Assembly: GCA_016748015.1 (NCBI GenBank)
Contig: JAAOMT010000518.1
Location: 434,001-498,000, forward strand
Direction of reading: 5' to 3'
From: Geosiphon pyriformis uo1
Taxonomy: Eukaryota; Fungi; Glomeromycota
DNA length: 64,000 nt
The position numbers were made by a program, and so were the translations under genes. Under the pieces are notes generated by a model. The model was not told the origin of the DNA and searched no databases. It was given only the letters and a program-made list of their open reading frames with translations. Below, in pieces: positions 2,250 to 59,290 of the stretch (its first letter is position 1; the number at the start of each line of letters is the position of its first letter).

Positions 2250-3780
2250 CATAATGGGACTTAAAAATAAATGTATGTTCTTATATTTAAAACATTTATT
2301 TTTTCAAAGATTTTCACTTTCAAAAATTAACAAAAAATAACAAGATTTAAATTTTCTGTTTTTAAAAATTTTATGATTATAATTGTTTTTGTAATATATA
2401 CATTTAATTTATTCAATATTAATTTTATCTAAAAATTAATTTTGGTTATCATAAAATCTTATAATTTAAGACCTTTATATTTTTTAAAACTGAACATAAT
2501 TAAAAATAAATAAATTAATAAACAACAAAACTTCTTTTTTTCTTTTATTTCAAATTTTCCAAAAAGAAAAATATTTTTAATAAGAAGTTTTTTGTTTTTA
2601 TTGTCTTTAGTTTTTTAATATTTTATAAAACATTACCTATTTGTTTAAGAATTAATAACTTATAATAATAATAATAATAATATAATTAAGAAAAAGTTTA
2701 TAAAAAGTATTATATATGGCTTTATTAGAATTAAGATTTTAATTAATTAATATTTAAAATAATTAAAATTTTTTAACAAATTAACAAATTCTTATGGTTT
2801 TTTTAAAATTTGTTAATTTAAAAAACTTTTTTATTTTTAAACTTTCTTTGAATTTGGTTTTACTTTATTTTTTTTTATAATATGTTCTAAAAAAATGAGT
2901 TTTATTTTTTTAAAAAAGTATTTTTTGGCATTAAACTTTAATTTAGCATTTTGAAATTAATTAAATATTTGTTTTAAATAATTATTGATTTTTATAAAAG
3001 TTTTTTATATATAATATCTATAAGCCATTAGATATGATTAAAATATTGTATAATTTAAATAATATTATATTAAATTTAAAGTTTTTATCTTAAATAAATA
3101 TATTTTTTTTTATTAATAAAATTTTTTTAATTTATTAATATTTATTAACAAATTTAAAATTTAAACACTATTTTTGTTTTTTAAAGTGTTTGATATTTTT
3201 AAATTAATAATAAAAAATAACTGTTTATAAATAATAAAATTAAGTTTTTAATAATTAATACAAATTAAATTTCTATTTTTTTTAATAATAAAAACTACCA
3301 AAAATAATTATAAACTTAAAAATTTTTAAATTAAGTATTTTCTGTATTTTTTGTTAAATAATATTAATATTACATAAAAAATACCTAATAAATATATTAT
3401 TAAATTAAATTGGATTTTTTAAATTTAGCATATTAATAAATAAGTATTTTTAGCTGTATTTATTATAAAAAACTTAAATTTCAAGATTTAGTTTTTTAAT
3501 TTTTTTAAAAGTAAAAATATAGCTTTTAATTAACTTTTTTTAAACTTAAAAAATAATATTATATAATTAAACAAAATCAGAAATTAACTTTAATTTTTTT
3601 TTGTTTTTTAATTTTGTTTTATATAAATAATATTAATAAAATAAAATAAATAATTTTTTTAATTAATAATTATTACTTATTATAATACAATTATATAAAA
3701 TTTTAAAATAAACATAATTTATGTTTTTTTTTATATAATTAATTACTTAACCCAAAAAAAACCATATTAATATTATAAAA
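2250..3780. other. Extremely AT-rich tract, probably fully degraded TE relics
   Basis: Almost no G/C and no ORF within it; composition resembles the most mutated TE copies in the window. No family assignable. Confidence 0.45.
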
Positions 3781-6343: not shown

Positions 6344-7210
6344 TATTACTCGTAGAATATAGGAATTAAATATTAGTACATAAATTAGCCAATCAGAATA
6401 AACGTAGTAAAAGTAGAATTCCAAGATTCTTCTCAGAGGAATTGCAGAATTCCAGAAATTTCAGGATTCTTGTACAAGAAATTACAGGATTCCAGAATTT
6501 CAAGATTTCTCTCAAAGGAATTGTAGGATTCCAGGAATTACAGAATTTTTGGTGTGAAGAATTGAGAAATTGAGGAATCTCAATTATGTATATATAGCAG
6601 TAGTGTTAGAAGTAGAAAAGACAGACCTCACAGTTTAAATTTGATCTAAGTGACCTTCCAACTCACAAATATCAATAAATAATTATTCTTTATCTCAAAT
6701 CCACTTTTTACTATCAACATTTCATGTTAATAGTAATTGATACTTAACTACATTGGAACAATAGCTCTTGATCATGGCTATTAATAGGATACTAATTTGC
6801 AATTGTTTTACTTATTTCTTTATTTTCTTTTATTTTTATTTTATTTTTTTTGTTATTTTTTTTGTTGTACTAATTGATTAAAAATTAAAAGTACTAAGAT
6901 AAAAATGTTATAGAGACTGGTAAAAAACCCATGAAACAAGGGTAGAACACTCATAGATTTGAGGATAGCTTACCAAAAAGATTACCAGCCACCATGCTGA
7001 GAAAAAAATTCAATGAAATTGCAATTCCAGGAGGCTACTGAAAACAATTATTAAATCTCTGTTCATTATATAAAGGACTCTACAAAAAACCTTCAAATAA
7101 TAATATCTTTGGATCTATAATACTGCTAACAACCAATATCAAGCAAGACATTGAGCACCAAGTTATGAGTTTGTTATTTGATTTGAGACCCCAAATAATC
7201 ATTTATAATA
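6344..7210 (+). repeat. 5' LTR of element A (U3 9-bp CAGRATTYC array about 6415-6550, TATA about 6587, AATAAA 6674)
   Basis: Direct repeat of 15532-16398; followed by the PBS. Confidence 0.9.
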
Positions 7211-7212
7211 TT

Positions 7213-7228
7213 TGGTGCTCTCTGTAAG
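7213..7228 (+). promoter_or_regulatory. Primer-binding site of element A
   Basis: TGGTGCTCTCTGTAAG, 2 nt after the LTR; complementary to a tRNA 3' end ...GAGCACCA. tRNA identity not determined. Confidence 0.8.
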
Positions 7229-10200
7229 ATATAATCCTACAGAGAACCAGCACTAACAACAATTATTTAAAAGTGGCAGAATCAGAAATCATAGGAACAA
7301 ACCATTTAAGATTCACCAAATCCTTATTTCAACAGTACAGCTAACAATTGGACTTAACCAATAACCATTATCCAGCAGAATCAGTTTTCAATTTTTATGT
7401 CAACAAGAGAATCATAGATTTTCTAGGAAGACCAGTTAACATTGAATCAGCAAGAGAAAATTTTTATACAGAATTAATCCAACACACCAGTTTATTATGG
7501 AATTACAGTTTTGTACCAATTATTAGAGAAATTAATCAAGAAATTAAAAGATACACACAACAACAATTTCCCATTACTTATGCAGATAAGGATAAAAGAA
7601 AATTACAAACACTAATAGTAATACCAAGAGGAATACAATTACCAACATGGAAAAAACAAAGAATTAAATTTCCACTATATCCATCATATCATCACACACC
7701 TGGTAGTATCATCAACATTACATCAACAGGTGTGTCCACATTAAATATGACATCAACATTTGGATGACTCCTATTTCAAAGTAAACAAAAAAAAGTAGAA
7801 TTATTAGGAACTTATGGTAATTACTTTGAAGAATTTAAATTACAATCCCCAATGTCATCAGAATTTGATTACTGCCACCTCAACCAGATTTCAGAAACAC
7901 AAGTCATTGAAAGATAACAGCATCAGAAGAAAAAGAAGAGGAGGATCAAAAATTTAATTATCAAAATCCAATTGCAGAAAATCTAGAAGTTGAAATCCTG
8001 AATATTCAAATCCAGCAAACTCTGAATAATCCAAACTTTGAGCTAATTAATTAAAAAAACTTACCTCCAAAAATTGTCATCAATTAGCAATCAATTGATC
8101 TGATTGCTAAACAACCTCAACAGCTGCCAATACCACCTCAACCACTACCCCTTTAACTACTACAACAACCAAATGTAAATCTAATGGCCTATGTTCCAAT
8201 AGCAAAACTTGAGAAATTTACAGATGAAGAGGATGATGCATAAGTGTAGCTGAATGATGTGAAAAAAGCCATTACAGCTAATGGATAGAATGACACCAGA
8301 GCACTCCAAGCCATCTCTTATTTCTTATAAAATACTACTAACTTATGATATCAAAGTTTAATTGCCAAACCTCAAACATTTCAGGAGTTTAAAGTTGCAT
8401 TCTTGGGATATCTTAGTAATAATAACAGTATTAATTGTCTAACTAACATCTTCACTACCATCAAACAAAAAAAAACTGAAGCAGTTATTACTTATTTGAG
8501 ATGTTTTTACAAGAACTTATGTCAAATTCAAGCAATCTAAGTTGACTATTTTACAGCACTACAAATTCTAAACCAGTTTATCCATGGACTGCACAGTAGC
8601 ATCCTTCAATGTGTATGCCTAATGTACCCACAAACCCTCCAAGACACAGTTACCAATACATGAGATTTTAAAACTGCTGAACTCAAAGCTAATCATACTC
8701 AAGCCATTAATTTAGTAATGAACAGATCATTTGAATTGGATTCTAAGCTGAAACAATTCAGTGATTCCATTGACAAAAAATTAGAAGGATACTTAGCTAA
8801 CAATCAGGCAATTTATCAATCTCTACAATAATATAATAATCAAGGAAACACGAATCATTTTCAGAATCAGTCGCATCTATTATCTTTGACCAATCAACAG
8901 TGGCAGTAAAAGATGCATGTTTGTCACTACTGTGGTAAACAAGAACATTTGAAAATTGACTGTAGGTTAAGAATAAAAAACCAATGATTAAGAAACCAAT
9001 ATCAAAACCCCAATCACAGATTTCAAGCTCTAAATTAAAACCCAAATCTGAATTAATACTTACCTTATTATACCCAAATGATGCAACAACCAATTTATTA
9101 ACCACCCGTATATCAAACTTCAATTTATCAGTCAACAACACCTGTTATCTATTAACTACAGTTCCAATTCATCTATTAATCACAGCCCCAAGTAATCTAT
9201 CAATCTCAACAAATTCAAACACCACCACAAAACTTACCTTAAAACAAAACCCAAAGACCGAGAATAACACAACAAAGCTGAAGATTATCAATAGTAGTTC
9301 ATCAACTAATCCTCAGTTCCTCAAACCAGTCATCAGGATCTCGACAACAAAATTTGAATACTGGGTACACCCAAAACCTGAATGCCTAACACTATTTAAG
9401 TCTTCTGGTTACCCCAGAAGACGTCTTATCCAACAACCAAAAACCCAACCAAAACAAATTACCTACCAACAACATACCTCCAGCTACCATAACTAATGAC
9501 AAATCACTAACAGCAATTTTTCTATTTGAATTCAAGGAACTGTTACAAATACCATTGTTCAGTGGAACCACATTTGAAGAAAAACCCATCATTGCCATGT
9601 ATACTGATGCTAAAGTCAATGGTTAGGCCATAAAACTGATCCTAGATAGTGGTTTAGCCAGCAGCATTATTACTAAGCAATTTATAGATCAATTAGGTTG
9701 CTAAGTTGACTGTGCTGCCAGTGCAAGAATTATTACTACTAATAGCACCACAAAAACACCTATTGGTAAGATTGATGAGTTTCTATTCGAAATCAATGGT
9801 CTTGTTATGCCCATTAAAGTTTTAATAATAGAAGCCACCCAATATCAAGCTTTAGTTGGTAATGACTGGCTGTCCAAGACCAATGTTATACTCGACTAGA
9901 CCACCCAGGAACTACAACTCAGCCAAAATAGTCAATACACATGGGTTCCAGTCACATGTGAACACTTTAAAACTTCCTCAAGAAATCAATCATTGATCAA
10001 ACTAAAGGAAGAAAAGAAGAAATCTACCTGGAAAGCATACCAAGTCTCTTGGGCTGATGAAGACCACAACAAGTTATTACTGATACTCCCATGGAATGAT
10101 AATGGAAAAGAAAAAAAAAAGAATCTACCTGGAATTCTAACCAAGTCTGAAGAACTGACAATAACCAGGAAGAGCTAATAAATTGGGAGTGGGAAAAAAA

Positions 10201-13200
10201 TACAAAAGAAAAAAGAAAAGGAAAAGAAAAAAAACCAATATCAACCACCACTGCTACTTATACTCTATACCCATATATTCTACCACAACTATCTAACTAT
10301 CACCATCCAAAACTAATATGTGTTAATTGTGGCAAGAAATTGTTGTCAATGGGCACATGTTGTGGTGATAACAAGAAATACCAGACAGCAACTAAGTTTT
10401 ATTGCCGTCCATGCCTCATTAAATGCTTTAAAAGACCAAAATGAGTTGGAAAATGGAATAATAAGCCATGCTTGGCTTGTGGAAAAACTTTCCTTGACAA
10501 AAAAATGTGGAATAACATTTTTAGGAGAGGAAGAATGTGCAACAAATTATGTCAGTACACAATTCTTATAAGTGACTGAATAAGAAAGGGAACACCCATA
10601 GACACAGCTTGGAGACAAGCAGTCAAATGTCTAGACGGCTGTTTACACAATGACAATAAAATCTGGCGAATGGCCTTTGCCAAAATCAAAGGAGCATCAC
10701 TAAAAGAAATAAAAATAATTAAAAATAATCTATCTGAATCTATAAAACTTGACTGGAACCCAGAACCAGTCATAAATCTTTTGGATCCAGAACAATTCCA
10801 TAAACATTACCAGAAATTAGCATCCACTAAGAAGGAACAAGAGCAATAGTTGGAAGAAATAAACATGAGACTATGTGACCATTGTTTGATTTCATGTAAC
10901 TTTCAGTACTATAATGAGTGTGATCTCATTTACAATCTACCACCATGCATAATCTACACGATTCTAGAAAAGGAAAAACCAATCAACAACTGCACATTAG
11001 AATTGGAATCAATTTTCAATTATGATTCAAACTTTGACAATGACAATGACAAAAATAACAGTTCCAGCTCCATTCAAAATGGCAATGAAAATTATGACAA
11101 TTCAAACTCTGATTCAAACCCCAAACAATACATTGCGCTTTCCAACCTCTCCAAGAAGCAGGAACTGAAATAATTCAACGACAATGATGAAGGTATCATG
11201 TCAGAATACATGCATAATATTAATACAGAGTTTGATCTAAGATACTTAGGGAAAGACACCATCAAACTGGAACTCCATTCACACACTTGTATTGATCTCA
11301 AAATAGCACTAGAAATCTTAGCAACAATCATGGTTTAACTAGTATTTAAGAGTAGTTTAGCAAAAAGAGGAATCAACATCAAAGAAGGAATAGTTGATAC
11401 AGAGTATATAGAAAATATCATTGCAATGCTACAAAATGACTCAGAAAAGGCCTATGTCATAGAGCCAAATGAAAAGATAGCACAGGCAATATTTCTACCT
11501 CTAGTGAAAATAGCTCAGTTAGTATCAGTAGGAAACAGAAAAAAATTAAAGATCACAGCTAAAGGGATACAGGAATTCGGATCAACAGGTAGAATAGATA
11601 TACCAGTTAATATGACAGAGGAAAAAGTTATTGACAAGAGAGAAATTATCTCTATCCATCAATCAATTTCCATTCCATTATATGACCAGTATATAATAAT
11701 TATAGAGAGAAAAGTAAGGGATCAAGTTCAGATTTTTGAGATAGAAGCAACATTTTGTAAATCAGGAAAGATGAGATTAGTTAATCTACACATATCAGTC
11801 AAGAACCACAACTACATCAAAATTCCCATTTACAACAACACAGAAAATGTCTTTAAGATACCAGAAAGAACCACCATTGGATACTTAACTACTAAAATTA
11901 AAGATCAACTGCCAAACACCATTCCAGACTTTTCACAACTTTGCAAATATGTGGATATTATATCACAAACAATATATGAACAAAATAACTGTTATTTGCT
12001 CCAATCAGAACAATTGGAACAGATGAACTTGGGAAATCTAGATCCACTACAATGAATGCAATTCAAGATGCTACTCAACAATTTCAATAACATTTTTGCC
12101 AGTGAAAACAAATTTGGCAGAACTGACATCATCTAATATCAAATTAAAACTGGAGATGCAATGCCAATTAAACAGAGAGCATACAGAGTACTACCCATAA
12201 GCCATGAGATTATTTGTTAAGAAATCAATTGGATGTTTGACAATGAGCTAATTCAGCCATCAATAAGTTTATGGTCATCACTAATGGTACTAATCTGTAA
12301 GAAGAATGGGAAAATCTGCTTTTATGTGAATTACTGAAAACTAAATAGAGTAACCAAAGAAGATAGGTATCCGACTCCAAAGATTCAAGAGTTGTTTGAT
12401 GCTTTTGGAGGAAAGAAATAGTTTTTAACTTTGGACTTAGACAGTGGTTACTGACAGGTAGCCATGAAACTGAAAGATAAAAAGAAAACAGCTTTTACAA
12501 CACAAGAAGAAAATTTTGAATTCGAGATTATGCCATTCAGCTTAATGAATGCTCCAGCTATCTTTCAGTGGCTAATAAAAATTGTCTATATGAGACTACT
12601 ATAGAAATCAGTAGTTATATACTTGGATAACACCAATTTGTTCTCAAAAACATTTGATGATCATCTGCATCATCTCCAACAAGTATTTGAAAGACTCAGA
12701 CAGGCAGAATTGAAATTAAATGCCAACAAGTGTTTTTTGAAAAAACAGAACTCAAGTTTTTGGGATATGTTGTAAGCAAAGCTAGTATTAAAACGGATCC
12801 AGATAAGATTGCAATAGTAAAAAACTTTTTAGTACCAACCAACTTGACAGAACTAAGAGCATTCTTGGGATTTGCTAGATATTATTGGCATTTTATCAAG
12901 GACTTTTCTAAACTGGCTCAGCCACTTCATCATTTACAAACTAAGAATGTAAAATATGAATGAACAGAAACTCAACAAAAAGCATTCAACATACTGAGAA
13001 GAAAGCTTATTCAAGCTTCAGTATTGATATATTCAGATCACAGCAAACCATTCATTATCATTACTGATGCATCAGGCCAAGCATTGGGAGCAGTATTATT
13101 ACAAAAAGAACCAGATGCAAGAGAACATCCAGTAACTTATGCCAGTAGAAGCTTAAGTCCAGCTGAAAAAAACTATGGAACTCCAATATTGGAACACTTA

Positions 13201-14828
13201 GTTATCTATTGGGCTGTTATCAAATAGAAAGAATACTTGAGTCAAAAGTTTGATGTGTACATTAATCACAAAGAATTGACTTCAATCCAGAAACAAAAAT
13301 TTGGAGATGATTGCCATATCAGATGAAAAATAGAACTTTCATCATTTAATTATACAATACATATAAAAAAGGAAAAAAAAATGGAAATGCCAACAGATTG
13401 TCATAAATAAGACAAATCTAAAAACATTTCAACCCAAAAATATAACAAAAGATAAATATACAAAAATATCAACAACTCCAATATTATATAAATATCCAAT
13501 TGTTCAAGAAAAAATTATCTTAAAAGGAACAAAGAAACATAAAACAACAATCAAAATATTTTATCAACCATCAAAATATACTTTACCAGAAGAACAAAAA
13601 AAATCTAGATCTACCAACCAGAGTAATCACAGAACCAGAAAAAGAGACAATATTATTTAACATACACTTAGAGCCAATAACAGGATATTTTTATAAATAA
13701 GCAACCATAGAAAGAACCAGAAAAAGATACTATTGACTATCAATATATCCAGACATCATCTAATATGTTCAAAATTGTGATGTTTGTCAAAAAAGAGGTA
13801 GAACAAAACCCAGTGAACCATTAAGAACAATTAAAGTAAGACAACTATTTGATTGTATCAGAATTGACTTAGTCAGACCATTAACAATCACCAGCAGAGG
13901 CAACAGATATATTGCAGTAACTATGAATTATCTCACAAAATAGCCAGAAGCAAAAGCCATTTAAAGAGCAAATGCAGAATCTATTGCTGAATTCATTCAT
14001 CAAGAGTTGATTTGTTAACACAAATGTCCAAAAAAACTATTATCAGATCAAAGAACTCATTTTGTAAATAGAACATTAGAAGAATTAAGCCAAAAATTTG
14101 GGATAAAAAGACCATTATCATCACCATATCATTCATAAACAAATGGACTAGTTGAAAAGTTTAACAGAATATTGTGTGAAGCCATTGCCAAAATCAGCCA
14201 AAAAAATCAAGATGAATGGAATTTGTTTATACCATTAGTATTATTTGCTTATCAGACAATGAAACAAAATAATACACAAACAACATTATTTGAATTAGTA
14301 TATAGTAAAACAGCAATACTACCAGTAGAGATAGAAATATGAACATATCCAACAGAACCAATAACAGAAGAGAATTTCCAAAAAACATTGTTGAAAAGAA
14401 CATATAACTTAATGGAAACACCAGAAAACAAAAGGTAAAGAGCAGCTGATAACATTCAAAAGTTACAAGAAAAACAAAAAAAAAGACACAATAACCAACT
14501 ACCAAAGAAACCAGTTGAATTCAAGATTGGAGACAAAGTACTTCTATATTATACTAAAGTGAAAAAACAATAGAGTGAAAAATTTGATCCCAAATGGAAC
14601 AAACCATTTCACATAGAAGAAATTCTTAGAAATAGAGCTTATAAATTAAGATTAAACAACAAAATCTTAACCAAAACAGCACATGGTGATCGACTGAAAC
14701 AATATCATTATATAATATCATCATCTATCAGTAATATTCCACAATTAGAAGTACAGAGAATATTAATTAAACCAGATGAGATTTCATGAGATCTAGAACC
14801 AATTATAATTATTAAACCAAACACATAA
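7229..14828 (+). pseudogene. gag-pol of element A (many premature stops)
   Basis: gag MAYVPIAKLEKF (about 8184); zinc-knuckle remnant CHYCGKQEHLKIDC (about 8920); PR LILDSG (about 9636); RT MPFSLMNAP and YLDN (about 12530-12630); RH ITDASG (about 13060); IN HHCC remnant and core (about 13660-14330); C-terminal FKIGDKVL..KWNKPF domain. Confidence 0.9.
11197..11595 (+). pseudogene. dUTPase domain within pol of element A
   Basis: Degenerate dUTPase motifs 1-5: NTEFDL, KSSLAKRG, GIVDTEY, KIAQ, KGIQEFGSTG. The copy in element F has DAGFNL, ASRSSL, KIAQ, RGIQKFGS. Confidence 0.88.
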
Positions 14829-14887
14829 AATCAAACAACCAAGGAGTATATAAAAGACATGGTATATGTGACAAAAAACAACAGAAA

Positions 14888-15517
14888 ATGGAGATTACTA
14901 ACAGTATTCACTCACTAGCACAACAATTCTTTTAATTAATTCAACAACAAAAGATAGAAATTACAATTAACCAATAAACTATTAGATACACAAACATCAA
15001 AAAGAGAACATGAGACAAAACACAGAGAAAAACAGAAAACACTGTTGACAAAATAATCACAAAAGTAAAACTGGTAATAGAAACACAACCAAAAGTAACC
15101 TAATATTAAGAGTTAACTATAAAAACTTGGGATTGGTGGATACAACAATTTCCAAGAAACTTTTGTTACTTCTATTTGGGACAACACTTGAACATCCAGA
15201 ACTTATATATAGATAAAACAAAATGATTATTTGACACAACAATATTGCAACAACTAAAACAATTTGTGGGAAAAAACAATTTGATTACACAGACAAAAGC
15301 CATTTATCAGCTATATACTGGATTTCAAGATTGACCAGAAATCTTAATCAATTCAGAAATGGACTCTATTACCATTAACTAAATGGGAAAAATAACAAAT
15401 ACACAATTTAAAGACTTACAGAACAAGATATTACAAGTAATTCTTGAAAAAAAAGTTCAAAAAATACTCAAAGACAGAAAATTAAAATTAGGAGATTTTG
15501 ACAGAGTTCAATATTAA
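14888..15517 (+). pseudogene. Accessory ORF3 of element A (209 codons, unknown function)
   Basis: Single frame from ATG 14888 to TAA 15517. Internal stops are all reachable by C>T/G>A. Homologous ORFs occur in elements F, E, C and as remnants in B. Confidence 0.75.
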
Positions 15518-15531
15518 AAAGAAGAGAATAA

Positions 15532-16398
15532 TATTACTCATAGAATATAAGAAGTATATTAGCATATAAATTAGCCAATCAGAAGTAACTGTAGTAAATG
15601 TGAAATTTCAGAATTCCTCTCAGAAAAATTGCAGAATTCCAGAAATTTCAGGATTCTCGTATAAGGAATTGCAGGATTCCAGAATTCCAGAATTTTTCTT
15701 AAAGAAATTGCAAGATTTTAGAAATTCCAGGATTTCTGGTGTGAAAATTTGAGAAATTGAGAAATTTTAATTATGTATATATAGCAGTAGTATTAGAAAT
15801 AGAAAAGACAGACTTTGCAGTTTAGATTTAATCTAAGTGATCTTCTAACTTACAAATATCAATAAATAATTATTTTTTATCTCAAATTCACTCTCCACTA
15901 TCAACATGAAGTGTTGATAATAATTGATACTTAACCATACTGAAACAATAGCTCTTGATTATGGCTATTGACAGGATACTAATTTGCAATTGCTTTTACT
16001 TATTTCTTTATTTTCTTTTATTTTTCTTTTATTTCTTTTGCTATTTTTTTTGTTGTACTAATTAATTAAAGATTAAAAGCACTGAGATAAAGACATCATA
16101 AGAACTGGTAAAAGACCTGTAAAACAAGGGTAAAATACTCATAAATTTAAGGATAGCTTACCAGGAGGATTACCAACCACCACGCTAAAAAAAAAATTTG
16201 ACAGAATTGCAATTCTGGGAGGCTACTGAAAACAATTATTAATTCTCTGTCCATTATACAAAAAACTTCACAAAAAACCTTCAGATAACAATACCTTTGG
16301 ATCCATAACACTGCTAACAACCAATATCAAGTAAGACATTGAGCACCAAGTTATGGGTTTGTTATTTGATTTAAGACCCCAAATAATCATCTGTAACA
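15532..16398 (+). repeat. 3' LTR of element A
   Basis: Follows a purine tract, ends TGTAACA, direct repeat of 6344-7210. Confidence 0.9.
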
Positions 16399-19300: not shown

Positions 19301-21487
19301 AGAAAAAAAAATTGTTAATAACACCTATCTATTTACTCAAAAATTAACCAGTATTATAACTAAAATACTTTAATAACAATGATTAAGAGATTAAACCAAA
19401 AAAAACTTATAATATTAATATAAAATATAACTCTACAATATTCACAAAAAATACTCTGGTTCTCCAACCAAAGTTTTTAACAAAAATTAATTTTAAAATT
19501 GCTTTTAAAATTTTATTAGGAGCAATAGTTCAGATTATTATTGGCAAATAAAAAAATTAACATTAAAAAAAGAGTTATAGATATAAGATATACAAAAAAC
19601 ATTACTGTTATATTACAAAATAAAATTAAAAAATCTTTTAAAATAGAATATGATAAAAATTGTTCAAGTTATTTATCTACTTTTAATTAATATTTCAGAT
19701 TTACAATCAATTGATTAAAGAAAACAATTAGGCAAAAGCAATAAAAAAACTCAAGATTTTGGTTTAATAAGATAATTTACAGTTTCAGTTAATATTGTAC
19801 TTAATATACAGAATGAATTTTACCAAATTTTGTGACTTTTCCAACCAATTATTATTTTACTCTTTGGAAAATATTACGAAATTTACATTTGTTTAAAATC
19901 TATTATCACACAACAAATTTTTAAATCAAATAAACAAATTTATACAAAGCACAAAATTTCAATTCCAAATATTTATATTCTTAAAAGAATAAAAAAATTC
20001 AAAGTTATATTTTATAATTTTAATAACTATCTTATTATTTTATTAAATAAATTAGAAATCAGAATCATATATAACAATATTTTTCAAAAAAAACTTCTCA
20101 AATTGTTTCTAATTTTATTAAAATTGTAAAACAAACTCTTTTTTAAATTTAAGTATTATTTTTAGCACTAAAAATTATTATATCATTAAAAAAACTATCT
20201 CAACTTAATATAAGTCTACTAAAACTACAACAGTAAAGACAATTAAAACAATTTATTATTAAATATGTTAATATATTTATAAGAGATAATAATAATTTAA
20301 AAAAAACCAATATTGTTTAATATTAAATTCATATAAAAGATGCTTTATTAAAATGTTAACAAACATACTAAGTTCTATCTACTAGCTACTAATTTATTAG
20401 AAAAAAATATAACAAATGCTCAATAATAGTCTTATTTAGTTATCAAAAAGCTTTTAAGTTTTATTAATAGTTTTAATTAAAAAGAAAAATAGAAAAATTC
20501 GATTTTGTATTAATTATTAACAACTGAATAATATTATAATTAGAAATATATATTTTTTATCTAAAATTGACAATATGCTAAATACTTTAAGAAAAACCAA
20601 GTTCTTTTCAACTTTAGACTTGAAAAATAAATACTAACAAGTCGAAATAGATTTAAAAAACCATTTAAAAACAGTCTTTACTACTTAAAAAAAGAAACTA
20701 CAAATTTAATATAATGTTTTTTAAACTTTATAATACATTAACAATATTTTAAAAACTCATAAATATTGTTTACAAAGAATTTTTATAATAATTAATAATT
20801 GTTTATTTTAATAACACTAATATATACTCTTTAAATTTTGAAGCTTATTTGATTTACTTGTAAAAAGTTTTTTAACAATTATAAAAAGCAAAATTAAATT
20901 TAAACATTGGCAAATATTACTTTAAAAAAACAAACTTGGCCTTTTTTGGCTATATTGTTAACAAAAATAGAGTTAAATCTAATCTAAAAAAAATTAATGC
21001 TATAAAAAATTTCAAAGTTCTTCAAAACATTATTAAATTAAGAAGATTTATTAAATTGGCTTTTTATTACCAAAAATTCATCAAAAATTTTTTGGAAATT
21101 GCCAAACTATTCAACTATTTGACCAACAAAAATGTTAAATATCAATAAATCTTTATTTAACAAAAGACTTTTGACATATTAAAAAAAATTAACAACAGCT
21201 CTAATTTTTGTTTATTCTAATTTCAACAAACTATTAATGCTTTATATATTACATTTGATGCTATCTTATTATAATTAAATAATAATAACAATAAACAAGT
21301 CATTACTTATGCCAACAGAATTTTTAAACTTACAGAAACAAAATATGAATCTATTAAATTAGAAACAGCAGTTATTATCTGGACTTTTAAATATTTTTAA
21401 CAATACTTATAAAAAAAAAGAATTTAATATTATTACTAACAATATTGGTCTTAAATAGCTTAACAAAAAGAGTTTAGAACTTAATGT

Positions 21488-22374
21488 TGTTACTTATAGA
21501 AAAAAAAACAAATATAGAAAAATAGTAGACCAATAAGAGAATAGTAGTTAGCATGTGAGCACATTGCTCAGCAATGTGAAGCAATGTCAGAAATCATGGC
21601 ACATTGCTCAGCAATATGGAGCAATGTTAGGAATTATGGCACATTGCTCAGCAATATAGAACAATGTCAAAAAAATACAGCACATTGCTTAGTAATGTGA
21701 GCATTGTTTGAAGAATTATAGCACATTGCTTGAGAATGTGAGCAATCTCATAGAACTCAAATTATGTATATATAGTAGTAGCATTAGAAGTAGAAAAGAC
21801 AGACCTCTCAGTTTAGATTTGATCTAAGCAACCTTCTATTTACAAATATTAATAAATAATTATTTATTATCTAAATCCACTTTTCATTATCAACACTTCA
21901 TGTTAATAGCAATTGATACTTAACCACACTGGAACAATAGCTCTTGATCATAGCTATTGATGAGATACTAACTTGTAATTGCTTTCATTTATTTTTTTAT
22001 CTTTTTTTATTTTCTTTTATTTCTTTTTGTTATTTCTTTGGTTTTACTAAACTGATTAAAGATTAAGTGCTGAAATACAGATGTCATAGGGACTGGTAAA
22101 AAACCTGTAAAACAAGGGTAGAACACTTATAGATTTGAGGATAGCTTACCAGAAGAATTACCAGTTACCATGCTGAGAAAAAAATTTGATGAAACTGTGG
22201 TTTCGGGAAGTTATGGATAAAACTATCAATTAAATCTCTGTTCATTATACAAAAAACTCAACAACAAAACCTTCAGATAAACCACATCTTCAGATATCAA
22301 CACCAGAATACCAATCAAACACCAAGTTACGAATTTGTTATTTGACTTAAGACTCCAAATAATCATCTGTAACA
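21488..22374 (+). mobile_element. Solo LTR, A/F family (F-type U3), inserted in the RNase H region of B
   Basis: TGTTAC...TGTAACA ends; R/U5 like the element A LTR, U3 like the element F LTR; flanks ATGT/ATGA. Confidence 0.88.
21561..21745 (+). repeat. U3 tandem array, about 4.5 x 40-41 bp, each unit containing the palindrome ACATTGCT-C-AGCAATGT
   Basis: Units visible at 21561, 21601, 21641 and about 21682; same array on the minus strand at about 59025-59210. Confidence 0.85.
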
Positions 22375-25074
22375 ATGACAAACAATTTTAATAGACTGAT
22401 TTTTTAGCTAATTACAAATATATTATCTATTACAAACCTAAAAAATTACATATAAATATGAATAGTCTTTCAAGAATAAGACAAAATTAACACTAATACT
22501 AATTTTACTACTACTTAATCAAATAATTAATAATAAACAATGAATTCCAAAAACTACAATCACATCAAAAATTATTTGAAAATTTTTATCATGTCAAAAA
22601 ATTGATATTTAAATAAAAAACACTGATTACAATACTAATAAAAATAATATTTTTTATACTATAACAAAATTTATTACTAAAATTATCAAAATTTAAATAA
22701 ACTATTCAAATTAGTACAATAAAATAAAATAAAAAACAATTTTATATAACATATATACAGATCTTTTATTAGTATACTTAAAAAAAATAATATTATGTAA
22801 AAAATACTTAAACATTATTTTTGGCTTTATATACAAAAAATTATTTGACAACATATAGAATTTTGTAATAGTTGTCAAAAAAGAAAAGAAACTTGTTTTA
22901 CTAAATCTTTAAATTCAATTAAAGTTAAATAATTTTTTAATAGAATTGGTATTAATTTAATTGAACCACTACTGATTACAACTTAAAAAAACTGTTATAT
23001 TATAATTGCAGTAAATTATTTTACCAAATAGTCTAAAGCCAAAGCTATTTAAAGAGCAAATACAAAATCAATGGTAAATTTTATTTACAAAGACATCATT
23101 TGTAAATACAAATGCTTGAGTAAACTTTTATTTAATAAAAAAACATATTTTGTAAACAATTTAATACAAGAAATTTGTAAAAAATTCAATATTAAATAAC
23201 TTTTATTATTACTTTATTATTTACAAACAAATAAACTAGTAAAACAATTTAACTAAACATTATATAAATCATTAATCAAAGTTTTAACTAACTTTAAACA
23301 AAAATAAGATATCTTTGTTTTATTAGTATTATTAGTATATAGAATACTAAAACAAGATATAATAAAGCACATACTATTTGATTTGACTTATAAAAAAACA
23401 GTAATATTATTAATTAATTTTACTATAAAAACATATCCAATACAACCAATTACAGAAAAAACTTTTAAAAAATATTTCAAAAAAGAAGTTATACTTTACT
23501 TAATATATTGAAAAGAAAATAATAAATTGCAGCCATTTATATTAAACACTTTTAAGCTTAACAAAAAGAATAATATAATAACAAACTATTACTTATTACT
23601 AATAAATTTAAAATTGGAAATAAAGTTTTTTTATATAGAATTAAGACTAAAAAACAAAGAAATAGAAAATTTAATCATAAATAGAATGAACTATTTTATA
23701 TCTATAAAGTTCTAAACAATAAATTATACAAATTAAAACTTAATGACAAAATTTTAGCAAAAGTTGTACATAAAGATTAATTGAAATATTATTACTTTAA
23801 AACTAATTCTGAATTATTAATTTTACAAATTAGTATATATTCTTCTTTAATTAAATCCAAAAATATTTTTCAAAACTTATAATTAATAATTGTAATAAAA
23901 CAATAATTAAATTAAGATATTTAATTTATTTATTATATTAGTATTTTTTTTAAAAAATAATATAAAAACATTAAAGAAAAATAAAAAGATAATTGTTAAA
24001 AAAATATTTAATCCAAAAATAATTTTATTTTTCACAAAAATTTAGTATTTTTCATAAATTATAATAATTATTTCTTGAAACATTTAACAAATATTCCAAA
24101 AATTAATGTTAGCTTTAAAAATATTTTTTAACTTATCTATAATAATTAATAAAAGCAGTAAATATATTTCTATTTATTGATACTTCTAAATTAAAAAAAC
24201 ACTGTACCAATAAAAACTAAAATTCAATACAAATAATCTTACTTTAAAAGCCATATAAAAACAAATTTATTATAAATTTAAGACAATAGTTGAATCAACA
24301 AATATGCACTACAAATTCAGAACAGTTTTTAAACTTCATAACTTATTTAATACTTGCAAAAACGTTTCACAAAATCTAATACTCTAATTAATAAAGATAC
24401 AATATATTGATAAGTTCACAAAACTGAAATTTTAACAATTTTTAGATCAAATTACTTTAATAATACTGAATTATTATCTAGATATTACAGATAGTACTTA
24501 GATTTTAACAAAACTTAATCTTAAGAAAAAAATTATATTATCAGTAGAAATTTAAGATATTAATTAGCATGAAATTATTTTTATAATTCTTATTATTAAT
24601 TTATATATATTATTATTTTAATTTATTACTTATTATCTTATTAAATTATTTGAATTACTATTTAACTAATAATTCAATTTGTAAATTACACAATACTCCA
24701 AACTATATAACATTCAAAAATTTACCAAAATTTGTAAAAATTCACCAAAATAATTAAATAATTTATAAAAATAATCAGTAGTTTGTTAAAAATATATCTT
24801 TAGTATAGCAAAATAATAGCAAAAAAAAAATACAAGTTTATAAACTAGTATTATAATAAGTTATATAAAAGAAAAGCTTTGTTTTTTAAAAAAATATATT
24901 TTAGTTAAAATTATTTTTTATTAAAAATATTTTTTTAATATTTTTTATTTTATTTTATTTAATGAGTAAGATCCAAACACAACTTAGTGCTATATATCAA
25001 AGAAATGATTTAAACTAAGTGTGAATCATGTACTTTCTACACGTAACCAGCCACTCGGGCCAATCAGGACAACA

Positions 25075-28000
25075 CTACACAGCTATATAAACCGAAACTG
25101 GATCACCTAAACCAGAAAAAAACAAACTGAATTTACAAAAGCCAAAACAAATACCAAAACCATTAGCAATACCAAGCAATTTGACTACACCAGCAGAAAA
25201 CCTCGAAGTCAAACCAGAGACTGAGATAAGAGTCAAGCCATCAAGTAAAATTAACCCATTCTTCTCTATATAAGCATGATGCTTAGCACGAACTGATCAG
25301 ATATTAGCCCTAAAAGTAAAACCAAGAGAATACACAAATTCAACAACTTTCAAACTGGCAACCTTAAGATTGTGGAAGATGGAGACAGCTTTACAAAACC
25401 AGCCATCAAAAACAAAACCTTTATAAAAAACTATGAACACATAAGAATCAGAGACACAGGATGACAACAGTTGCAATACACCCAAAAAGAAATGAGAAAG
25501 ACCAGAAACTGCCTTCCAAGAGCTCATATAAGATTCTAATAAACACCACCAAGCAGATTCATTAACCTTACAAGAGAACACATGATCTAACACTTCCATC
25601 TCACCACAATATAAGCACAATACACTAAAATACAGCCTACTATAAAGACACTTCCAAACAGCAACTGGCAGCCAATAGTGCAAAGCTTTCATGAAATAAG
25701 TGTATGCATTAGCCAAGAGTTTGCTGGTGAAACCAGCAGCCATATGCGAGTCAAGATGTCACACCAATAATAAGTAAAGCCAATCAACTTCAAAAAGCAA
25801 ACAACCAGCCAAAAACTTAGAACCAGATCCAATCTTCCAGCACACACAGCAAACTGAATAATAAATATTATGAACAAAATATCTGAAGTTGCTAGAAACA
25901 ATTCCACTATTAGCAATCAAAAAGTATTCATTTAGGCAGGAAGAAAGATGTCAATTAAAGAGAGAAGCAGCACCAGCAATCGTGTCAATGCATTCATTAC
26001 CCAAAATACCAAAGTGACCCTTCATCTTATGCCAGCTGACTTCCAAATTCTTACTGCAAATAGCATTGATTATATAATGATCTTCGACCCAACATTGATT
26101 ATAAAAGTCAGGACATGCCAGACTCAATTCTGATTTACAAGCGTTTAAAGCAGATTAACTATCCAAAAAAAGTAGAACAGAACTTGATGGGAGAACACAT
26201 TTTAAAGCCAGTACAATAGCTTGCAACTCTGCCAAAGTAGACAACATCAAACCCAATACACAAACACCCAAACCCAAATCAATGTCTTCAAAATATGTGG
26301 CAGCACCAGTTCTACAGCTGGCTGTGCCCAAATTACTAAGGGACCCATCCATGTATACTGACAAGCTGCTAGCACCAGCTTGCAAAAAATGATCACAAAC
26401 AGACACAAAGTTGCTAGATTCAAAAATATTCAAAGGACCAACACTATGCAAAAATGGGAGGAGAACAGAAAAGGAGCCCATACCATTGAAAAATGTAATA
26501 GAAAGCTTGAACCACTCAAGAACAGAGCCACGAGAGTCTAATCTTTTCCAACACTTGAAGATATACCAATTAAATACAGCACTATAATGATCACAAAGTT
26601 GGTCAACAAAGGCAATACCATGCTGCTAAAGAGAAGAGAGAAACTTTGACTCACCCAGAACAGCAAACATTAGAACCCCATTGCAGAATCGAAAGAGAGT
26701 GGTCAAAGAGGCACTCAGAGATAATCCACAGTCAAGAAGAACACAAATTATGCCTGCCAAGAAGTTATTAGAAGCACTGATATGAATACGAACAGAAGAA
26801 CTCAATGGATGAACAGGGTGCCAACACAAAACTTGTAGGTCATGGGACCTATAAGAAAATAAGCAGTCCACAATACCATCAGAGTTCACAAAACTAACAA
26901 GGAAGGCAATTTTACTTTCAGACTGAACTTGAGAAAAAAATTTCAAACCATAAAAAGAAGGATAGTAAATTGTATTACTGGGAAAATTGAGTGGCAAACC
27001 AGATTTAAGTTTCAAGTCCTTGTGAATAAGAGTATCCCACTTGTTACACACTTCAACAAGAACAAAGCTAAACTGCATTTTATAGCTAACTATAAGATGG
27101 AGAACTGCTAAAACCAAATACAAAAGCTGTTTATTTGAGACAGCCTTCCATAGAACCAGATTGGTGAAAAAACAAACATCTGAATTTGCCTTAGCTAAAC
27201 TAGGCTTTGAAAGACCCTCAGTTGAAAGAAAAATACCCAAATACCAATGAAATTCACCCTTTTTGGCAATAGAGATTGGTGAGCCACTGATAGAAAGAGA
27301 CGGATTGCTAACCCTGCTATTAATAAGAATGGCCACTGTCTTGTCATTATTTATAAAAATGTTATTTATCTGAAAAAATTCACTAGCAATATCAAGAATA
27401 TGTTGAGTGGTATTTCGATTGCTACCAACCCAAATTGTATTATCAACAAAAGTGCCAGCAGCAAAAAAAGAAGAAAGTTCAGCCCAAGATTCAGCACAAC
27501 CATTTTTGGAAATAAAATGAGAATTCAACTTATACTTATACACACTCTCTTGACACTTGATTTTACATAATAGAGGGTCATAAAATATGCACCATAGTAA
27601 AGAGAAAAAGACCTTTCTCTGGTCCAGATCATCATGTACCTAATAACCACTCATTAAACCAAAATCTGTCATAACATAATTGGTGCAATTCTTATAAATA
27701 CTGCCAAAAAAACGTATGAACTTGCTGCACATCTTAATCCTGACTAAATTTTTTTCGAGATGCTTCCAGCCAACCAAATTATATGCCTTTTTCATATTCT
27801 GTAAAACCAACCAAAGCTTCCGATTCTTCTCTAAAGCATCTTCAATAACCAAACCAATTGCAAAAATAGGAGACTGAGTTGATATATTTTTCAAAACAGA
27901 AAAATTGTCCCCACAAAGAACATTAAAAGTGCTGCATGCTGTTACCAGATGAAATTAGAGATATTGTTTAGCATGAAATTACCCTTATAAATCTTATCAT

Positions 28001-30720
28001 TAATTAGCATATATTATCGTTTCAAATTATCACTTATTATATTAGCAAAATATCTGAAATTATCATTTAATTAATAACCCAATTTGTACATAACACAAAT
28101 GTAACCTAAGTGTAATGATTAATCATACAATACCCCGAAATATGTAACATTCAAAAGTTCACTAAAATTTGTAGAAATTCACCAAAATAATTGATAGTTT
28201 ACCAAAATATCTAATAGTTTGCAGAAATAACTTGTTGTTTGCCGAAATGTATCTTTAGTTTAGCAAAATTGTAGAAAAGAGCAAAGTTCAAGTTTATAGA
28301 ATAGTGTTACAACAAGTTGTATAAAAAAAGAGCTTCTTTTTTTGAGAAAATGTATCTTACTTTACATTTATTACTTAGAACCATTCCTACACACACAAAA
28401 AGAAATAAATATCAAATAATTTGAAAAACCAAATTCTTTAATTATTGCACTTGGAAAATCCCCAAAACCCAACTAACATTTTGAAATTAATTAGCTATCA
28501 ATTTCAGTAAACTGTTAGTGACTCCAGGCCTGAATAGAAAACATTTCCCTTGATAGAATTCTATTTCTTTTACATTTCTTTTATTTTCTTATTACAATCA
28601 TTAGGGTAGCTTACAGATGAGATTCCTGTAGAAGAGTTGACTTTCACAGCAAAGTAACTATACATTTTAGTGAGCTTCCAGACGAGCAATTCCTGAGAAA
28701 GAGTTAACGTTTACTACAATGTAACTACACAAAGCAACTGGCATGAAATTGGCCATTCCATTTATAAGCCCAGCAGTTCAAATTATAGGAGATAATTTGA
28801 AGATAAATTCAGTTATCAGAGGTTCAAACACTTCTCATAATCATGAATTAACAGTATTACAACAAACATACAAGAGCTAAGAAGAGACCAAAAACCTCTG
28901 GTAACAATGTCAACAAAATTCTATCTGATAGAATCTTAGAGAAAATCTTATAAGCCATCTCAATCAAAGCAATAGGTTGAGTATTCATAAGAACACCTTT
29001 CTATTTATACAGTTTGGGAATCATTGAGACTCAGGCCTCCTTCTAAGAGCCAGGTACAGATTTATCAGACAAACAGGAATTTAAAAGCACCAAAAGCATA
29101 TTCAGAACTGCTTTATTACAATGTTTCCAAAACTCATTTGATATACCTAAGAGACCAGCAGCTTTATCATCAGGCATAAAAGAAACCACCCCAAACAGTT
29201 CATCAAACTCAATAGAACACATAACACCTGAAAAAGCTTTATCAAAAACATAATCCAAAGGTTGATATTGACAACACCAATTACCAGAGACATTATCAAC
29301 CACTTGATGCTTTCTAGTCCAACCTTCCATAATGACATCAATCTTAGACTTAACCAAATTGGGTTTCAGGACAAGTTCATTATCAACAACCAGATGGTTG
29401 AATACCACTTTACGAAATAGGCACTTCAGCATATTCCTGATAGTATGATTCTTATTAATCTCAAAGCTCTTCATCCTTTTATCTATAGCAGCTCTGATAG
29501 TTGCCTCCTTAGTTCTACAAAATTCAGCAAGTTTGGACATGTGATAAGCTTTTCTAGCACCACAAAGAGCAAAACAAACCCGATCAAAGCCTGTACCAGA
29601 ATCCATAATGCTTTGAATGGCTAAAGCCCCAACACTGTCCAAAGAAACCCAGCACTTCATAAGAGACTCAAAATTCACAATACTCTCTTCACATGAAGTC
29701 TTAACTATTTTAGAAACCAACAGCTCTAATTTGTGATATCTTGAAAATTCCTTGGTAAAAACATCATCAAAGCTCTTAAACCACTTCTTTTTGAACACTT
29801 CATTAGCCAAGAGAACCATAATTTTACAAACAACATTCCATATTGCATCTAAATCCAAGAACTTAACAAAGGCAGCAAACTTATTTGAAAACATCACAGC
29901 ATTTGCCAACATAGCATTTTCAAAATTTTTCTATTTAGTTTTATCAGCACCCTTAAAATCAAACTTCCATCAGTCTCTATTCACTTGCTTGTGAAGAGAG
30001 TTTAGCTGCACATCCAAAAGCCCACCCAAATCCACAAACACAGCCCAATAGTTAGTATCAAAAAATTCATCAACATTAAACACATTATGACCCACTACTA
30101 CATTAGCCAAATTCGAAGAAATGAACAAAAAATCAATAGTTTTAGCCATGTCTCAAGAGTTAGCCCATGTGGGCATTTTGACATAAGAACTTCCACCCAA
30201 AGAATTAACTAAACCAAGATCTAGGCACTTTCTGAAACTAGTACTTTTTCGAGAGCCATCTTCATTGAAGTCACCATCCAAAACAATAAAAGAGGATTTA
30301 TTAACCACTTTAGCAATCATAGAATTAATATCATTAGCCTGAGAGAAATGAACAGCCAGAGATGCCCCAGCATAAAGCCTCAAGATAGACACAGAAAGTT
30401 TATTCTTGAATAGCAACTTGACCAATAGAAGCCAACCTGGCACCTCAGAAACCTTACAAACATGACGAGTTAGAGAAGTGTTTATGATAATTGCAACTCC
30501 AGTACCAAGAAACCCTTTGTCTAATCCAGATGAAAAAACTCTAACTCCATTGAATTTATTTCTAATTCAAAGCTTATTGCTAGATCTCAACTTTGTTTCT
30601 GTAATGATTGAAACCAAATTCCCAGAATCTCTATGTCAATAAACAACGTTCTTCTACTTGGCAGGGACATTGATACTGCAAACATTACACATTGCAAAAT
30701 TCCACATAAAATCATTTATT
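25075..30720 (-). pseudogene. LINE ORF2 (interrupted by solo LTR 27940-28906)
   Basis: Pieces 30153..30443 (APE), 29043..29912, 27640..27894 and 26626..27543 (RT), 26155..26481 (RNase H), 25297..25743 (Zn finger); stop at 25075-25077. Confidence 0.85.
27940..28906 (+). mobile_element. Solo LTR, B family, inserted in the LINE RT
   Basis: TGTTACC...GGTAACA ends; 4-bp TSD ATGC/ATGT (one C>T); similar to the 3' LTR of B. Confidence 0.9.
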
Positions 30721-49002: not shown

Positions 49003-49659
49003 TTAATAAGAAGTATAAGTTTTAACCATAATATTATTCTTTTCAAAGAGATTGAGCTCTGGCAAAATCAAGCTATTTATGAGATAATTTATTTGAAGGG
49101 TTTTATCTAACTCAAAGCTAACTAGTTTGTTGAAGTCTTTTGTGGATAAGGTATATAACACTTGAGGTGAAATGAGTTTTGTATTCAAAAGACCAAATCT
49201 TTGTATTAGAGTTTTGGCTCTTCTAGCAATAATTAAAACTTTGGAGACATCTAACCATATAATGCCCAAAATTTCTGCTTGTATCTCTGAAGTTGTTTTC
49301 TTCATAAGTTTCATATCCTTTATGATTTCACCAAGACAACCATAGAGCTCTAATTGCCTTCCATATGACAAGTTTTTGTCTATGGATAAGATTTCTTGAA
49401 GTGTTTTTCCAATTGTGTTGAAAAGTAGGAGTATAGCTACTGTTATACTTTCCAACAGATATTTATCCATTTTACTACCAATTTTTTCTCTTCTAGTAGT
49501 AGTTTTCTTTGGTTTAATAATAGTATGTGTTCCACTGTTATCAGTTATAATGGTTTGTTTTTCAATAATCAGAGTAGCATTTGGATAGTTTTTGATCCAA
49601 TACTTATAGAAAGTATAGAAGGTGTTTTAAATGTTTTGATCCAAAAAATAATTGTTCAT
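49003..49659 (-). pseudogene. Accessory ORF3 of element C
   Basis: ATG 49659, one TAA, then in frame with ORF 49003..49470. N-terminal LIIEKQTI + basic patch and LYGCLG echo ORF3 of A/F. Confidence 0.6.
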
Positions 49660-56915: not shown

Positions 56916-58354
56916 TGTTACGGGTAAACTTGGTGGATAATGAAAATAGTAATGTTTGGTGCTTTCAATTATTGGTAATATGTTTTCTATGTAATTCTGT
57001 TGGCTTAGTCTCAATTATCAGTTTCTGAAGGTCTATTTCTGAATGTGAATTTACCTGTTGAGTTCTTTAATTATAAGACACAGAGTTTGTCTTTTGTGGA
57101 TTGCAATGTCTTCTATAAATGTAAGCTTTTCTTTTCTGAGCTAATAAGCACAGTCATTAAGGTCTGGTAGTGTCTTTTTGTCTTTCTGGTAAGCTAACAA
57201 GATAACGTTAATATCTAAAACCTAAGGGGAACCTCCCTCTTTTACCAGGCTATCACGAAGTCTATTCTCAGACAGTCAATTTTACTATGTTGCCACTCTA
57301 CAAAAAAAAATAAGAAAAAAAAAGAAAAAAAAAGATAAATTAGTATTATCAACTACCATGATTAAGAGCGATTGGTCCAAGTTGTTAATAGTTCAAGACA
57401 GTTATGCTAAAAGCATTTGTCCTGGAACAAAGGTATGAAACAATAGTCAATTCACGTAAATTCTACACAGTTTGAGAACATAAATTCATGATTCTAATTT
57501 CTCAATAATTGATTTATTTCAAAAGATGAATATGAAATATAATAAATAAGAAGGGGGTATAGATATTTGTTTCTTGTCTAGTGGTTCATATCTATCTCTG
57601 CTCTTTTCTACTTTCTACTACTACTTGCTTTTATACATTCTTTTGGTTTTACAGAATTGCTTCTGATTGTTTTGTTATTAATAATTATTGCTTTGTTATT
57701 TTTGTTATTGCTTCGTTCTTCTATGTTATTACTAGTTATCCTATATTATAACACGTTTTCTAGTGTTATTTTGTGTTATCTCACATTGTAACATGTTATC
57801 TTGTGTTATCCTAAGTTATAACATGTTATTCAATGTTATTGTGCGCTATCCTAAGTTATAACGCATTATTCAACATTATTGCATGATATTCTGTGTTATA
57901 TCATGTTTTGGTCACGTTTCTTCATAACTTCAGATTGGTTTTTCTACTTGGATAACATTATCTCTCTCTTTTTAGAATTAAGCTCCTACAAAATTGTATG
58001 TATCTGTTTCTATGTCTTTGTTTGTGTAATGTTTGATTGTTGCATTGAGTATTGTTTTTCATAGGTCTTCAAACTGTCAATTGGTAATTCGTCCTATGTT
58101 GTTAACTGTTATCATTTTTATAGATTTATGCAGCAGTACGTTTGGACAATGTTGAAAAGCAGCATATAGTTAGTATGCTGTTTTGTAATATAATATCAAG
58201 TTGCTACTTCTTACAAATTTTTTTACTTGTTGCATTGCTTCTTTGTTGAAAGTTTTCTGGCTGAGATCTCCATATAATGTCTTCAAATCTAGTTGTTTAC
58301 CAATTTTGTAAAACCAATATGTTGAAGGCAGTCTTTCTTTCCATTCCTGGGCAT
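56916..58354 (-). mobile_element. 3' end of Ty3/gypsy element E: 3' LTR 56916-57957, PPT, C-terminal part of ORF3; interrupted by F
   Basis: TGTTATC...CGTAACA ends in element sense; purine tract 57961-57973; GTTATAAC-based U3 array at about 57725-57905; peptide YWFYKIGKQLDLKTLY..KTAY*LYAAFQHCPNVLLH is homologous to ORF3 of A. Confidence 0.8.
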
Positions 58355-59290
58355 TGTTACAGATAATTATTTGGGGTCTCAGATCAAATAACAAATCCAT
58401 AACTTGGTGCTCAATATCTACTCTAATGGCTAATGGTAATAATATTGGTATGTTGTCTTTATCTAAAAGTTTTGATTGAGAGTCCTTTGTATAATATACA
58501 GAGATTCAATGACAATGTAGTTGGTTGGTGAGTTGTGTTCCCAATTTCTGTCTTCAGCTTGGTAGCTAGTTTATTCTGACATTCATGCTCTTCTGATAAG
58601 CTATCCATTAATATATATATAATTGTTATCCTTATTTCTGGGTCTTTTACCAGACTATCCGTAACATCAATTACTCAGCACTTTTAATCCCTAATCAGTT
58701 AGTATACAACAATAAAATCAAGAAAATAAAATAAAAGAAGAAAAATAAAGAAATGAGCCAAGGCAATACACAAGTTAGGATCTGTTAATAGTCATGATCA
58801 AGAGCTATTGTTCTAATGTAGTTAAGTATCAATTGCTATCAACATGAAGTGTTGATAGTAGAGAGTAAATTGAAATAGTGAATAATTATTTATTTAATAT
58901 TTGTAAATAGAAAGTTGCTTAAATAAAATCTAAACTGAGAGGTCTCTAATAGAAGGATTCTGCTTTTTTTCTACTTTTAACACTACTGCTATATATACAT
59001 AATTGATGTTCTATGGGATTGTTCACATTTCTGAGCAATGTGTTATGATTTTTTGAGCAATGCTTACATTGTAGAGCAATATGCCCTAGTTTTCTAACAT
59101 TGCTCCACATTGCTGAGCAATGTGCCATGTTTTCTGACATTGTTTCATATTGCTGAGCAATGTGCCATGATTTCTGTCATTGTTCTACATTGCTGAGCAA
59201 TGTGTTCACATACTATATACTATTCACTTATTGGTCTATTATTTCTCTATATCTGTTTTCTTTTTATGAGTAATATTATCTTCTCTTTTT

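Follow-up and report, generated by a model that had tools for sequence, protein, structure and literature searches.

A constrained third open reading frame beside family-specific U3 arrays in Ty3/gypsy retrotransposons of Geosiphon pyriformis

It is still an open question what third genes other than env do in LTR retrotransposons (PMC7264820). Additional sense-strand open reading frames between pol and the 3′ LTR have been described there and, as ORF3s, in bdelloid rotifers (PMC5408684). The elements which we report here resemble them, as far as these two accounts are available, in the position, the orientation and the family-wide presence of a third frame, which we call ORF3 as well. They also have a dUTPase-bearing pol, as do some rotifer lineages in the available text of PMC5408684. 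Our ORF3 differs in that it is not env-like, has neither a transmembrane segment nor an enzyme domain and appears to be exchanged as a block together with U3. The antisense frames of Retand and Grande elements (TRP28 and gene23; accessible parts of PMC11963269 and PMC7264820) are likewise additional genes; they have a promoter of their own, DNA binding is predicted for them, and family-specific tandem arrays lie close by. Those frames, however, are antisense, carry PF04195 and have arrays which are mostly internal and not in U3, whereas ORF3 lies on the sense strand and lacks PF04195; a cognate pairing is not stated for them in the available part of PMC11963269.

Two regulatory systems are also close. 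Foamy virus Tas, in the accessible part of its description (PMC3798896), is comparable to ORF3 in its regulatory position at the 3′ end and in the internal promoter, for which a candidate TATA box exists here, and the metagenomic relative L001 likewise repeats a motif in the spacer before ORF3 and in U3. In contrast to the virus, our elements have neither env nor bet, reside in a fungus and have the spacer directly behind integrase; the putative targets are tandem phased arrays, and elements A, F and C have no cognate sites before ORF3. Nothing in Pfam, PDB or BFVD links ORF3 to Tas, the structural models being of low confidence. The anti-silencing VANC proteins of Arabidopsis VANDAL elements (PMC5735166; PMC13547354, both in the parts available) share with our case element-specific tandem arrays that are wholly different between relatives, and a heavily methylating host. 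VANC belongs, however, to Mutator-like DNA transposons and is MAIN-related; here we deal with an LTR retrotransposon whose arrays are found only in U3 and would be exchanged by recombination. The MAIN/PMD domain of VANC gave no Pfam match above the cut-off in ORF3, for which the models are weak. VANC-like tandem motifs do differ between related elements here, and their role as targets is putative. The co-evolution of VANC with its targets is under structural study (PMC12859917, available part). By the features tested, we deal with a Ty3/gypsy element whose third frame, in sense orientation, is not Env, Tas, VANC or TRP28 but may work like Tas or VANC. As to the host, an LTR expansion is known in Geosiphonaceae (PMC11952901) and methylation of transposable elements in a related fungus (bioRxiv 2021.03.30.436303), both according to the accessible text.

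The window, that is, the whole stretch of 64,000 nucleotides which was analysed, is a repeat-rich eukaryotic sequence with several such elements. Element A (6344-16398, plus strand) is a full, decayed Ty3/gypsy retrotransposon. Its 5′ LTR (6344..7210) comprises a U3 with CCAAT box and 40-bp array, a TATA box and R/U5; the primer binding site (about 7213-7228) follows directly. The decayed gag-pol (7230..14829, start approximate) encodes gag, protease, a Cys-rich insert, dUTPase, RT, RNase H and integrase, and the pol stop codon ends at 14829. The order protease-RT-RNase H-integrase is that of Ty3/gypsy elements. LTR pairs with TG...CA ends, primer binding site and polypurine tract (PPT) are present, the 5′ ends of A being decayed, and a target duplication of 4 bp is exact in C and retained in three of four bases in A and in solo LTR B. 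The dUTPase lies within pol between protease and RT (A 11186-11660; F 63624-63166, minus strand; relic B′ 19408-19648) and is recognized in F by Pfam PF00692 (E = 1.9e-12). The Cys-rich insert, at about 10300-10900 between protease and dUTPase, has several CxxC pairs, and its stop-free part of 77 aa has no Pfam match. A near-complementary copy follows the primer binding site of A, so that the two (7213-7250) could form a hairpin; C has a similar primer binding site.

The other elements are nested into one another, with C and E inside the C-family element D, F inside the ORF3 of E, and B inside B′. Between 47100 and 64000 the nesting is four deep, and elements appear to insert into each other. 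Solo LTR B (21488..22374, plus strand) sits in the RNase H-integrase stretch of the old relic B′. A decayed long element at about 25000-32500 (minus strand), by its look presumably a LINE, breaks up LTR-like sequences that belong to the B′ family. Decay is strongly biased towards transitions, with 110 transitions and 10 transversions between the 5′ and the 3′ LTR of A and a ratio of 71:0 in a second pair. The observed/expected ratio of CpG is 0.05-0.15 in four elements versus 0.81-0.90 in two host stretches. Within LTR pairs, C-to-T changes are seen not only in CG but also in CA, CT and CC contexts, which hints at non-CpG methylation or a RIP-like process.

The sequence-only reading of the window had placed a frame of some 210 aa between integrase and PPT in A, F, C and in part E. 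Such a coding frame is indeed found in all four, in E as the 3′ half only (58349-57972, minus strand, within the remnant 56916..58354). In A it spans 14888..15517 (plus strand, 209 codons), in F 59926-59291 (minus strand) and in C 49003..49659 (minus strand, 218 codons), where it overlaps the PPT and the LTR start. As open frames these copies do not hold, having 8, 3 and 1 internal stops in A, F and C. The relic that had been assigned to B is real (24151-24549, plus strand; family profile iE = 1.9e-19), is 54% identical to the intact protein P0200, whose type it shares, and runs into a PPT, but its host is the old element B′ and not solo LTR B. The ORF3 proteins of A and F align with 38% identity (E = 9e-32), those of A and E and of F and E with 32-35% (E about 1e-17). 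Transversions at codon positions 1/2/3 number 41/25/55 between A and F, 31/18/40 between A and E and 32/20/36 between F and E. The third position thus exceeds the first and the first the second in all three pairs, so ORF3 has evolved under protein constraint.

Intact copies (P0004) exist in nature, and one of 211 aa is 73% identical to F. A search of 1.84 billion proteins with the ORF3 profile gave 71 matches, down to 20-25% identity. On inspection they include F, E, several A-like subtypes, the P0137 type and that of B′ (P0200); two proteins from metagenomes, P0183 and P0188, are also among them, with 20-37% identity to the others. At least six ORF3 types, again by inspection, coexist in Geosiphon. 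The named homologues of the third frame are hypothetical proteins of Geosiphon pyriformis (4 of 4; the best 120 of 130; 18 of the 20 looked up among the 71). ORF3 is conserved across lineages whose integrases are only 40-56% identical. At three of the eight stops in the ORF3 of A, 89-97% of the contig depth differs from the window among the 40 of 811 entries listed, summed contig depths not being equal to copy numbers. ORF3 had no Pfam match above the cut-off and no sequence match in PDB, viral contigs and a first metagenome scan contained no relatives, and a search of largely open-access literature returned no description of this family. Taken by its sequence, ORF3 is shown to be a constrained protein-coding family.

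The protein is soluble, with a pI of 8.4-9.6 and basic patches. The absence of a transmembrane segment, from which it had been concluded that ORF3 is not Env, is borne out by the intact copies scored: the best 19-residue hydropathy is 0.44 in P0004 and 1.28-1.37 in three C-type copies, so the protein is not Env-like. In 33 A-like matches variation is higher at residues 31-50 and 61-90 than in the core 91-150. AlphaFold models are poor (mean pLDDT 48 and 40), and both of these weak models show a helix, a beta hairpin, a basic loop and a helical core. The DNA-binding fold that had been expected did not emerge, as Foldseek returned nothing at E = 0.001 in PDB or BFVD with these low-confidence models. 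With VIA-align the best Z scores were 4.1 and 5.7, and several of the matches for residues 80-160 were helical DNA-binding domains (capicua C1, Spo0J, DnaA IV; Z = 3.2-4.0), which lie within background and were not used. The acidic C-terminus is in part the PPT read in frame and therefore argues only weakly for an activation domain.

Whether the third frame of C belongs to the same family is less clear. A sequence pattern had been proposed to be shared between C and A, F and E. Score tests do not support it: BLAST, hhalign (probability 0.06-0.2%) and HMM scores are not significant between C and A, F or E, and in 212 of 1000 shuffles the score is at least as high as the real median. Only the register of the alignment does: of the 20 intact C-type copies, 16 give a long alignment in register, a result matched by 0 of 1000 full and 15 of 1000 local shuffles. 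The register test was chosen after the alignment had been seen and the 20 copies are one family; we therefore consider the third frame of C, judged from these alignments, only a probable remote homologue of ORF3. These 20 are the intact ones, of 218 aa, among 120 C-type proteins. The C-type copies (P0009-P0128) form subfamilies in which non-transition changes cluster at residues 78-88, 115 and 189-193, and these residues are candidate specificity positions.

A TATA box precedes the ATG by 41 nt in A (14847..14854) and in F (59967) and by 46 nt in C (49705), exactly as had been noted. As A and F are not independent, this placement amounts to two lineages; the background rate of such boxes is 0.006-0.05 per 20 nt. 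The box of C overlaps the pol stop codon. A CCAAT about 50 nt 5′ of the box in A falls into pol codons and was discounted, and for splicing as a route of ORF3 expression a YAG just before the ATG was seen by eye in A only. A transcription start would be expected about where the left boundary of the exchanged block lies in A (14868..14878, see below), that is, 21-31 nt after the TATA box. The position of this breakpoint and the metagenomic relative L001 lend indirect support to the spacer before ORF3 being an internal promoter.

L001 is 50-56% identical to A and F over RT-RNase H-integrase and has an intact ORF3 of 230 aa and an LTR. Its spacer between integrase and ORF3 is 316 nt long, and on the other side ORF3 overlaps the adjoining U3, which is not a 40-bp array. 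The commonest GC-rich 6-mer of this U3 (TGCCCT, four copies) occurs twice in the spacer, as in 3 of 3000 shuffles for a motif first noticed by eye, against one occurrence in 2.8 kb of coding DNA. Spacer and U3 also share a 12-mer, and behind these sites the spacer has a TATA box, 126 nt ahead of the ATG. The shared sites contain CCCTA/TTAGGG, and we assume that they could be telobox-type sites of the host. Positions 2140-2340 of L001 look like a miniature of its U3 (3117-3660), with shared blocks in the same order that end in a TATA box; from this likeness, an LTR copy may have given rise to the internal promoter. None of the five top 6-mers of the respective U3 occurs in the 300 nt before ORF3 in A, F or C, so the dual-site layout of L001 is not general.

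In A, the 3′ end of ORF3 lies within a conserved island (15500..15545) with a GGAGCTCAA-like motif, the ORF3 stop, the PPT (15516-15531) and the start of the 3′ LTR (15532..16398). The motif stands just 5′ of the PPT in A (15500-15512), F (59300), E (57985), C (49060) and L001 (3088-3098). It is read in different frames and is thus likely to act in cis, in plus-strand priming or in packaging. A crossover between ORF3 and the array could take place in this island.

The U3 arrays of A and F are no more alike than shuffles, in line with the sequence-only reading, which had also stated that C and E carry yet other arrays; this is so, with 12 bp in C and 10/20/40 bp in E. The A array (15598..15748, with a CCAAT at 15575) had been described as a 9-bp repeat in contrast to a 40-bp unit in F. 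It does consist of RGAATTCCA-like subunits of 8-9 bp, but its strongest period, like that of F, B and E, is 40 bp; the contrast therefore hides a geometry common to the A and F arrays. In F the array (59204-59018, in the 3′ LTR 58355..59275, minus strand) is palindromic with a top period of 40 bp, in E (LTR 57957-56916, minus strand) the top period is likewise 40 bp, in the B′ LTR (from about 24536, plus strand; better-kept relative at 27940-28370) it is 20/40 bp, and in C (LTRs 56107-55360 and 49033-48382, minus strand) and D 12 bp. Four homologous ORF3 types (A, F, E and B′) are thus accompanied by four arrays which are unrelated by the shuffle test in the pairs compared. The array stands between a CCAAT box on its 5′ side and a TATA box on its 3′ side in A, F, B and E. 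The conserved period may also come from concerted evolution. Family-specific arrays and a fast turnover of U3 occur in other elements, too (available part of PMC11963269).

The comparison of A and F is the most telling. They run collinear along pol up to an abrupt break ahead of ORF3, as had been observed, with 29 transversions in 1276 positions of the integrase region and 121 in 625 thereafter; the change point lies at 14868-14878. At fourfold sites, ORF3 has 7/14 transversions, integrase 5/78 and the RT region 10/66. Such a jump from 5/78 to 7/14 speaks for an older ancestry of ORF3 and not just for relaxed constraint. A and F do not become close again in R/U5, contrary to what had been proposed (81/620 transversions); B is closer to A there (27/618). 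Solo LTR B has an F-type U3 array (21556-21750) on an A-type R/U5, with 4% transversions to F in U3 and 4% to A in R/U5, and switches at what corresponds to 15757-15776, next to the LTR TATA box (15776-15783). At informative sites it goes with F in 59 of 64 in U3 and with A in 64 of 78 downstream. The flanks of B are one continuous target, so B is a single insertion, and as it lacks ORF3 it shows exchange of U3 but not the pairing. From these patterns R/U5, pol and ORF3+U3 have separate histories. What stands of the proposed exchangeable cassette is thus one informative pair (A and F), to which B adds that U3 moves between R/U5 backgrounds; this supports, by sequence comparison, a swap of ORF3+U3 as one block between A and F. 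E, B′ and C differ everywhere, and their pairing of ORF3 and U3 is therefore ordinary descent. A joint of A-type ORF3 with F-type U3 was seen once among the best 15 of 392 contig joints, with a short side of only 25 letters.

We suggest that ORF3 is a self-encoded activator or anti-silencer which binds U3 and co-evolves with its array, and give this reading, drawn from the sequence, a probability of roughly one half. ORF3 would be made from the promoter in the short spacer as a subgenomic mRNA that ends in the 3′ LTR. Template switching of reverse transcriptase, possibly on a co-packaged ORF3 mRNA, would exchange the block; the 5′ end of this mRNA would fix the left breakpoint, and its R end would do so for the right. 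The left breakpoint, we note, is also explained by ordinary copy-choice where homology ends. A basic, helical ORF3 oligomer would bind the phased array, and protein and array would change together with the 20/40-bp geometry kept. Recognition of its own array would then keep the LTR active against host methylation. As to the sign of the regulator (activator, anti-silencer or repressor), analogy favours activation. A more far-reaching version, to which we lean rather less, sees in ORF3 a transcription factor of a new family and in the elements a library of protein-enhancer pairs on a shared gag-pol chassis, swapped by way of the ORF3 mRNA, Tas/VANC-like and arisen independently in early-diverging fungi.

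A serious competitor, to be held tentatively, is that nothing but linkage joins ORF3 and U3. ORF3 would be an accessory protein with another job, such as exporting or packaging RNA, suppressing RNA silencing or blocking a host restriction factor; the arrays would bind host factors and turn over fast, and both would travel together as the 3′-most block of the RNA, where crossovers need homology. ORF3 adjoins U3 at the RNA 3′ end and even overlaps it in C and L001, so linkage predicts the pairing pattern without any binding. Moreover, a single informative pair separates ORF3+U3 from pol, and that A, F and C have no cognate sites ahead of ORF3 is what linkage would give. Accessory genes of LTR elements have varied jobs (PMC5408684 in the accessible part; CERV), and maize CRM is known to have recombinant subfamilies (PMC3648361, available part). 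Against mere linkage, synonymous sites have reached saturation although pol is almost the same, so old ORF3+U3 alleles persist on one backbone, which calls for an explanation; the conserved island between ORF3 and the array would permit their separation; and in L001 spacer and U3 have sites in common.

ORF3 could also bind its own U3 as a repressor, for copy-number control or as an exclusion factor, so that new pairs escape resident repression. The same sequence evidence speaks for this, and at least six coexisting types fit negative frequency dependence; we nevertheless regard it as unlikely, since the arrays lie between CCAAT and TATA, an enhancer position, and both precedents, Tas and VANC, act as positive regulators. 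That ORF3 is a non-functional relic or a captured fragment which is carried along passively seems very improbable: all copies in the window are broken, but the codon-position pattern, the intact copies, the conservation across lineages and stop positions that differ in the contigs contradict it.

Returning to ORF3 as a self-encoded regulator of its own U3, these elements offer natural, intact and divergent alleles whose short arrays differ and whose backbone is nearly the same, which makes a comparison of cognate with non-cognate pairs direct. If true, ORF3 would represent a new DNA-binding family with orthogonal pairs of protein and site, and it would be a means by which a retrotransposon sustains its expansion in a heavily methylating host.
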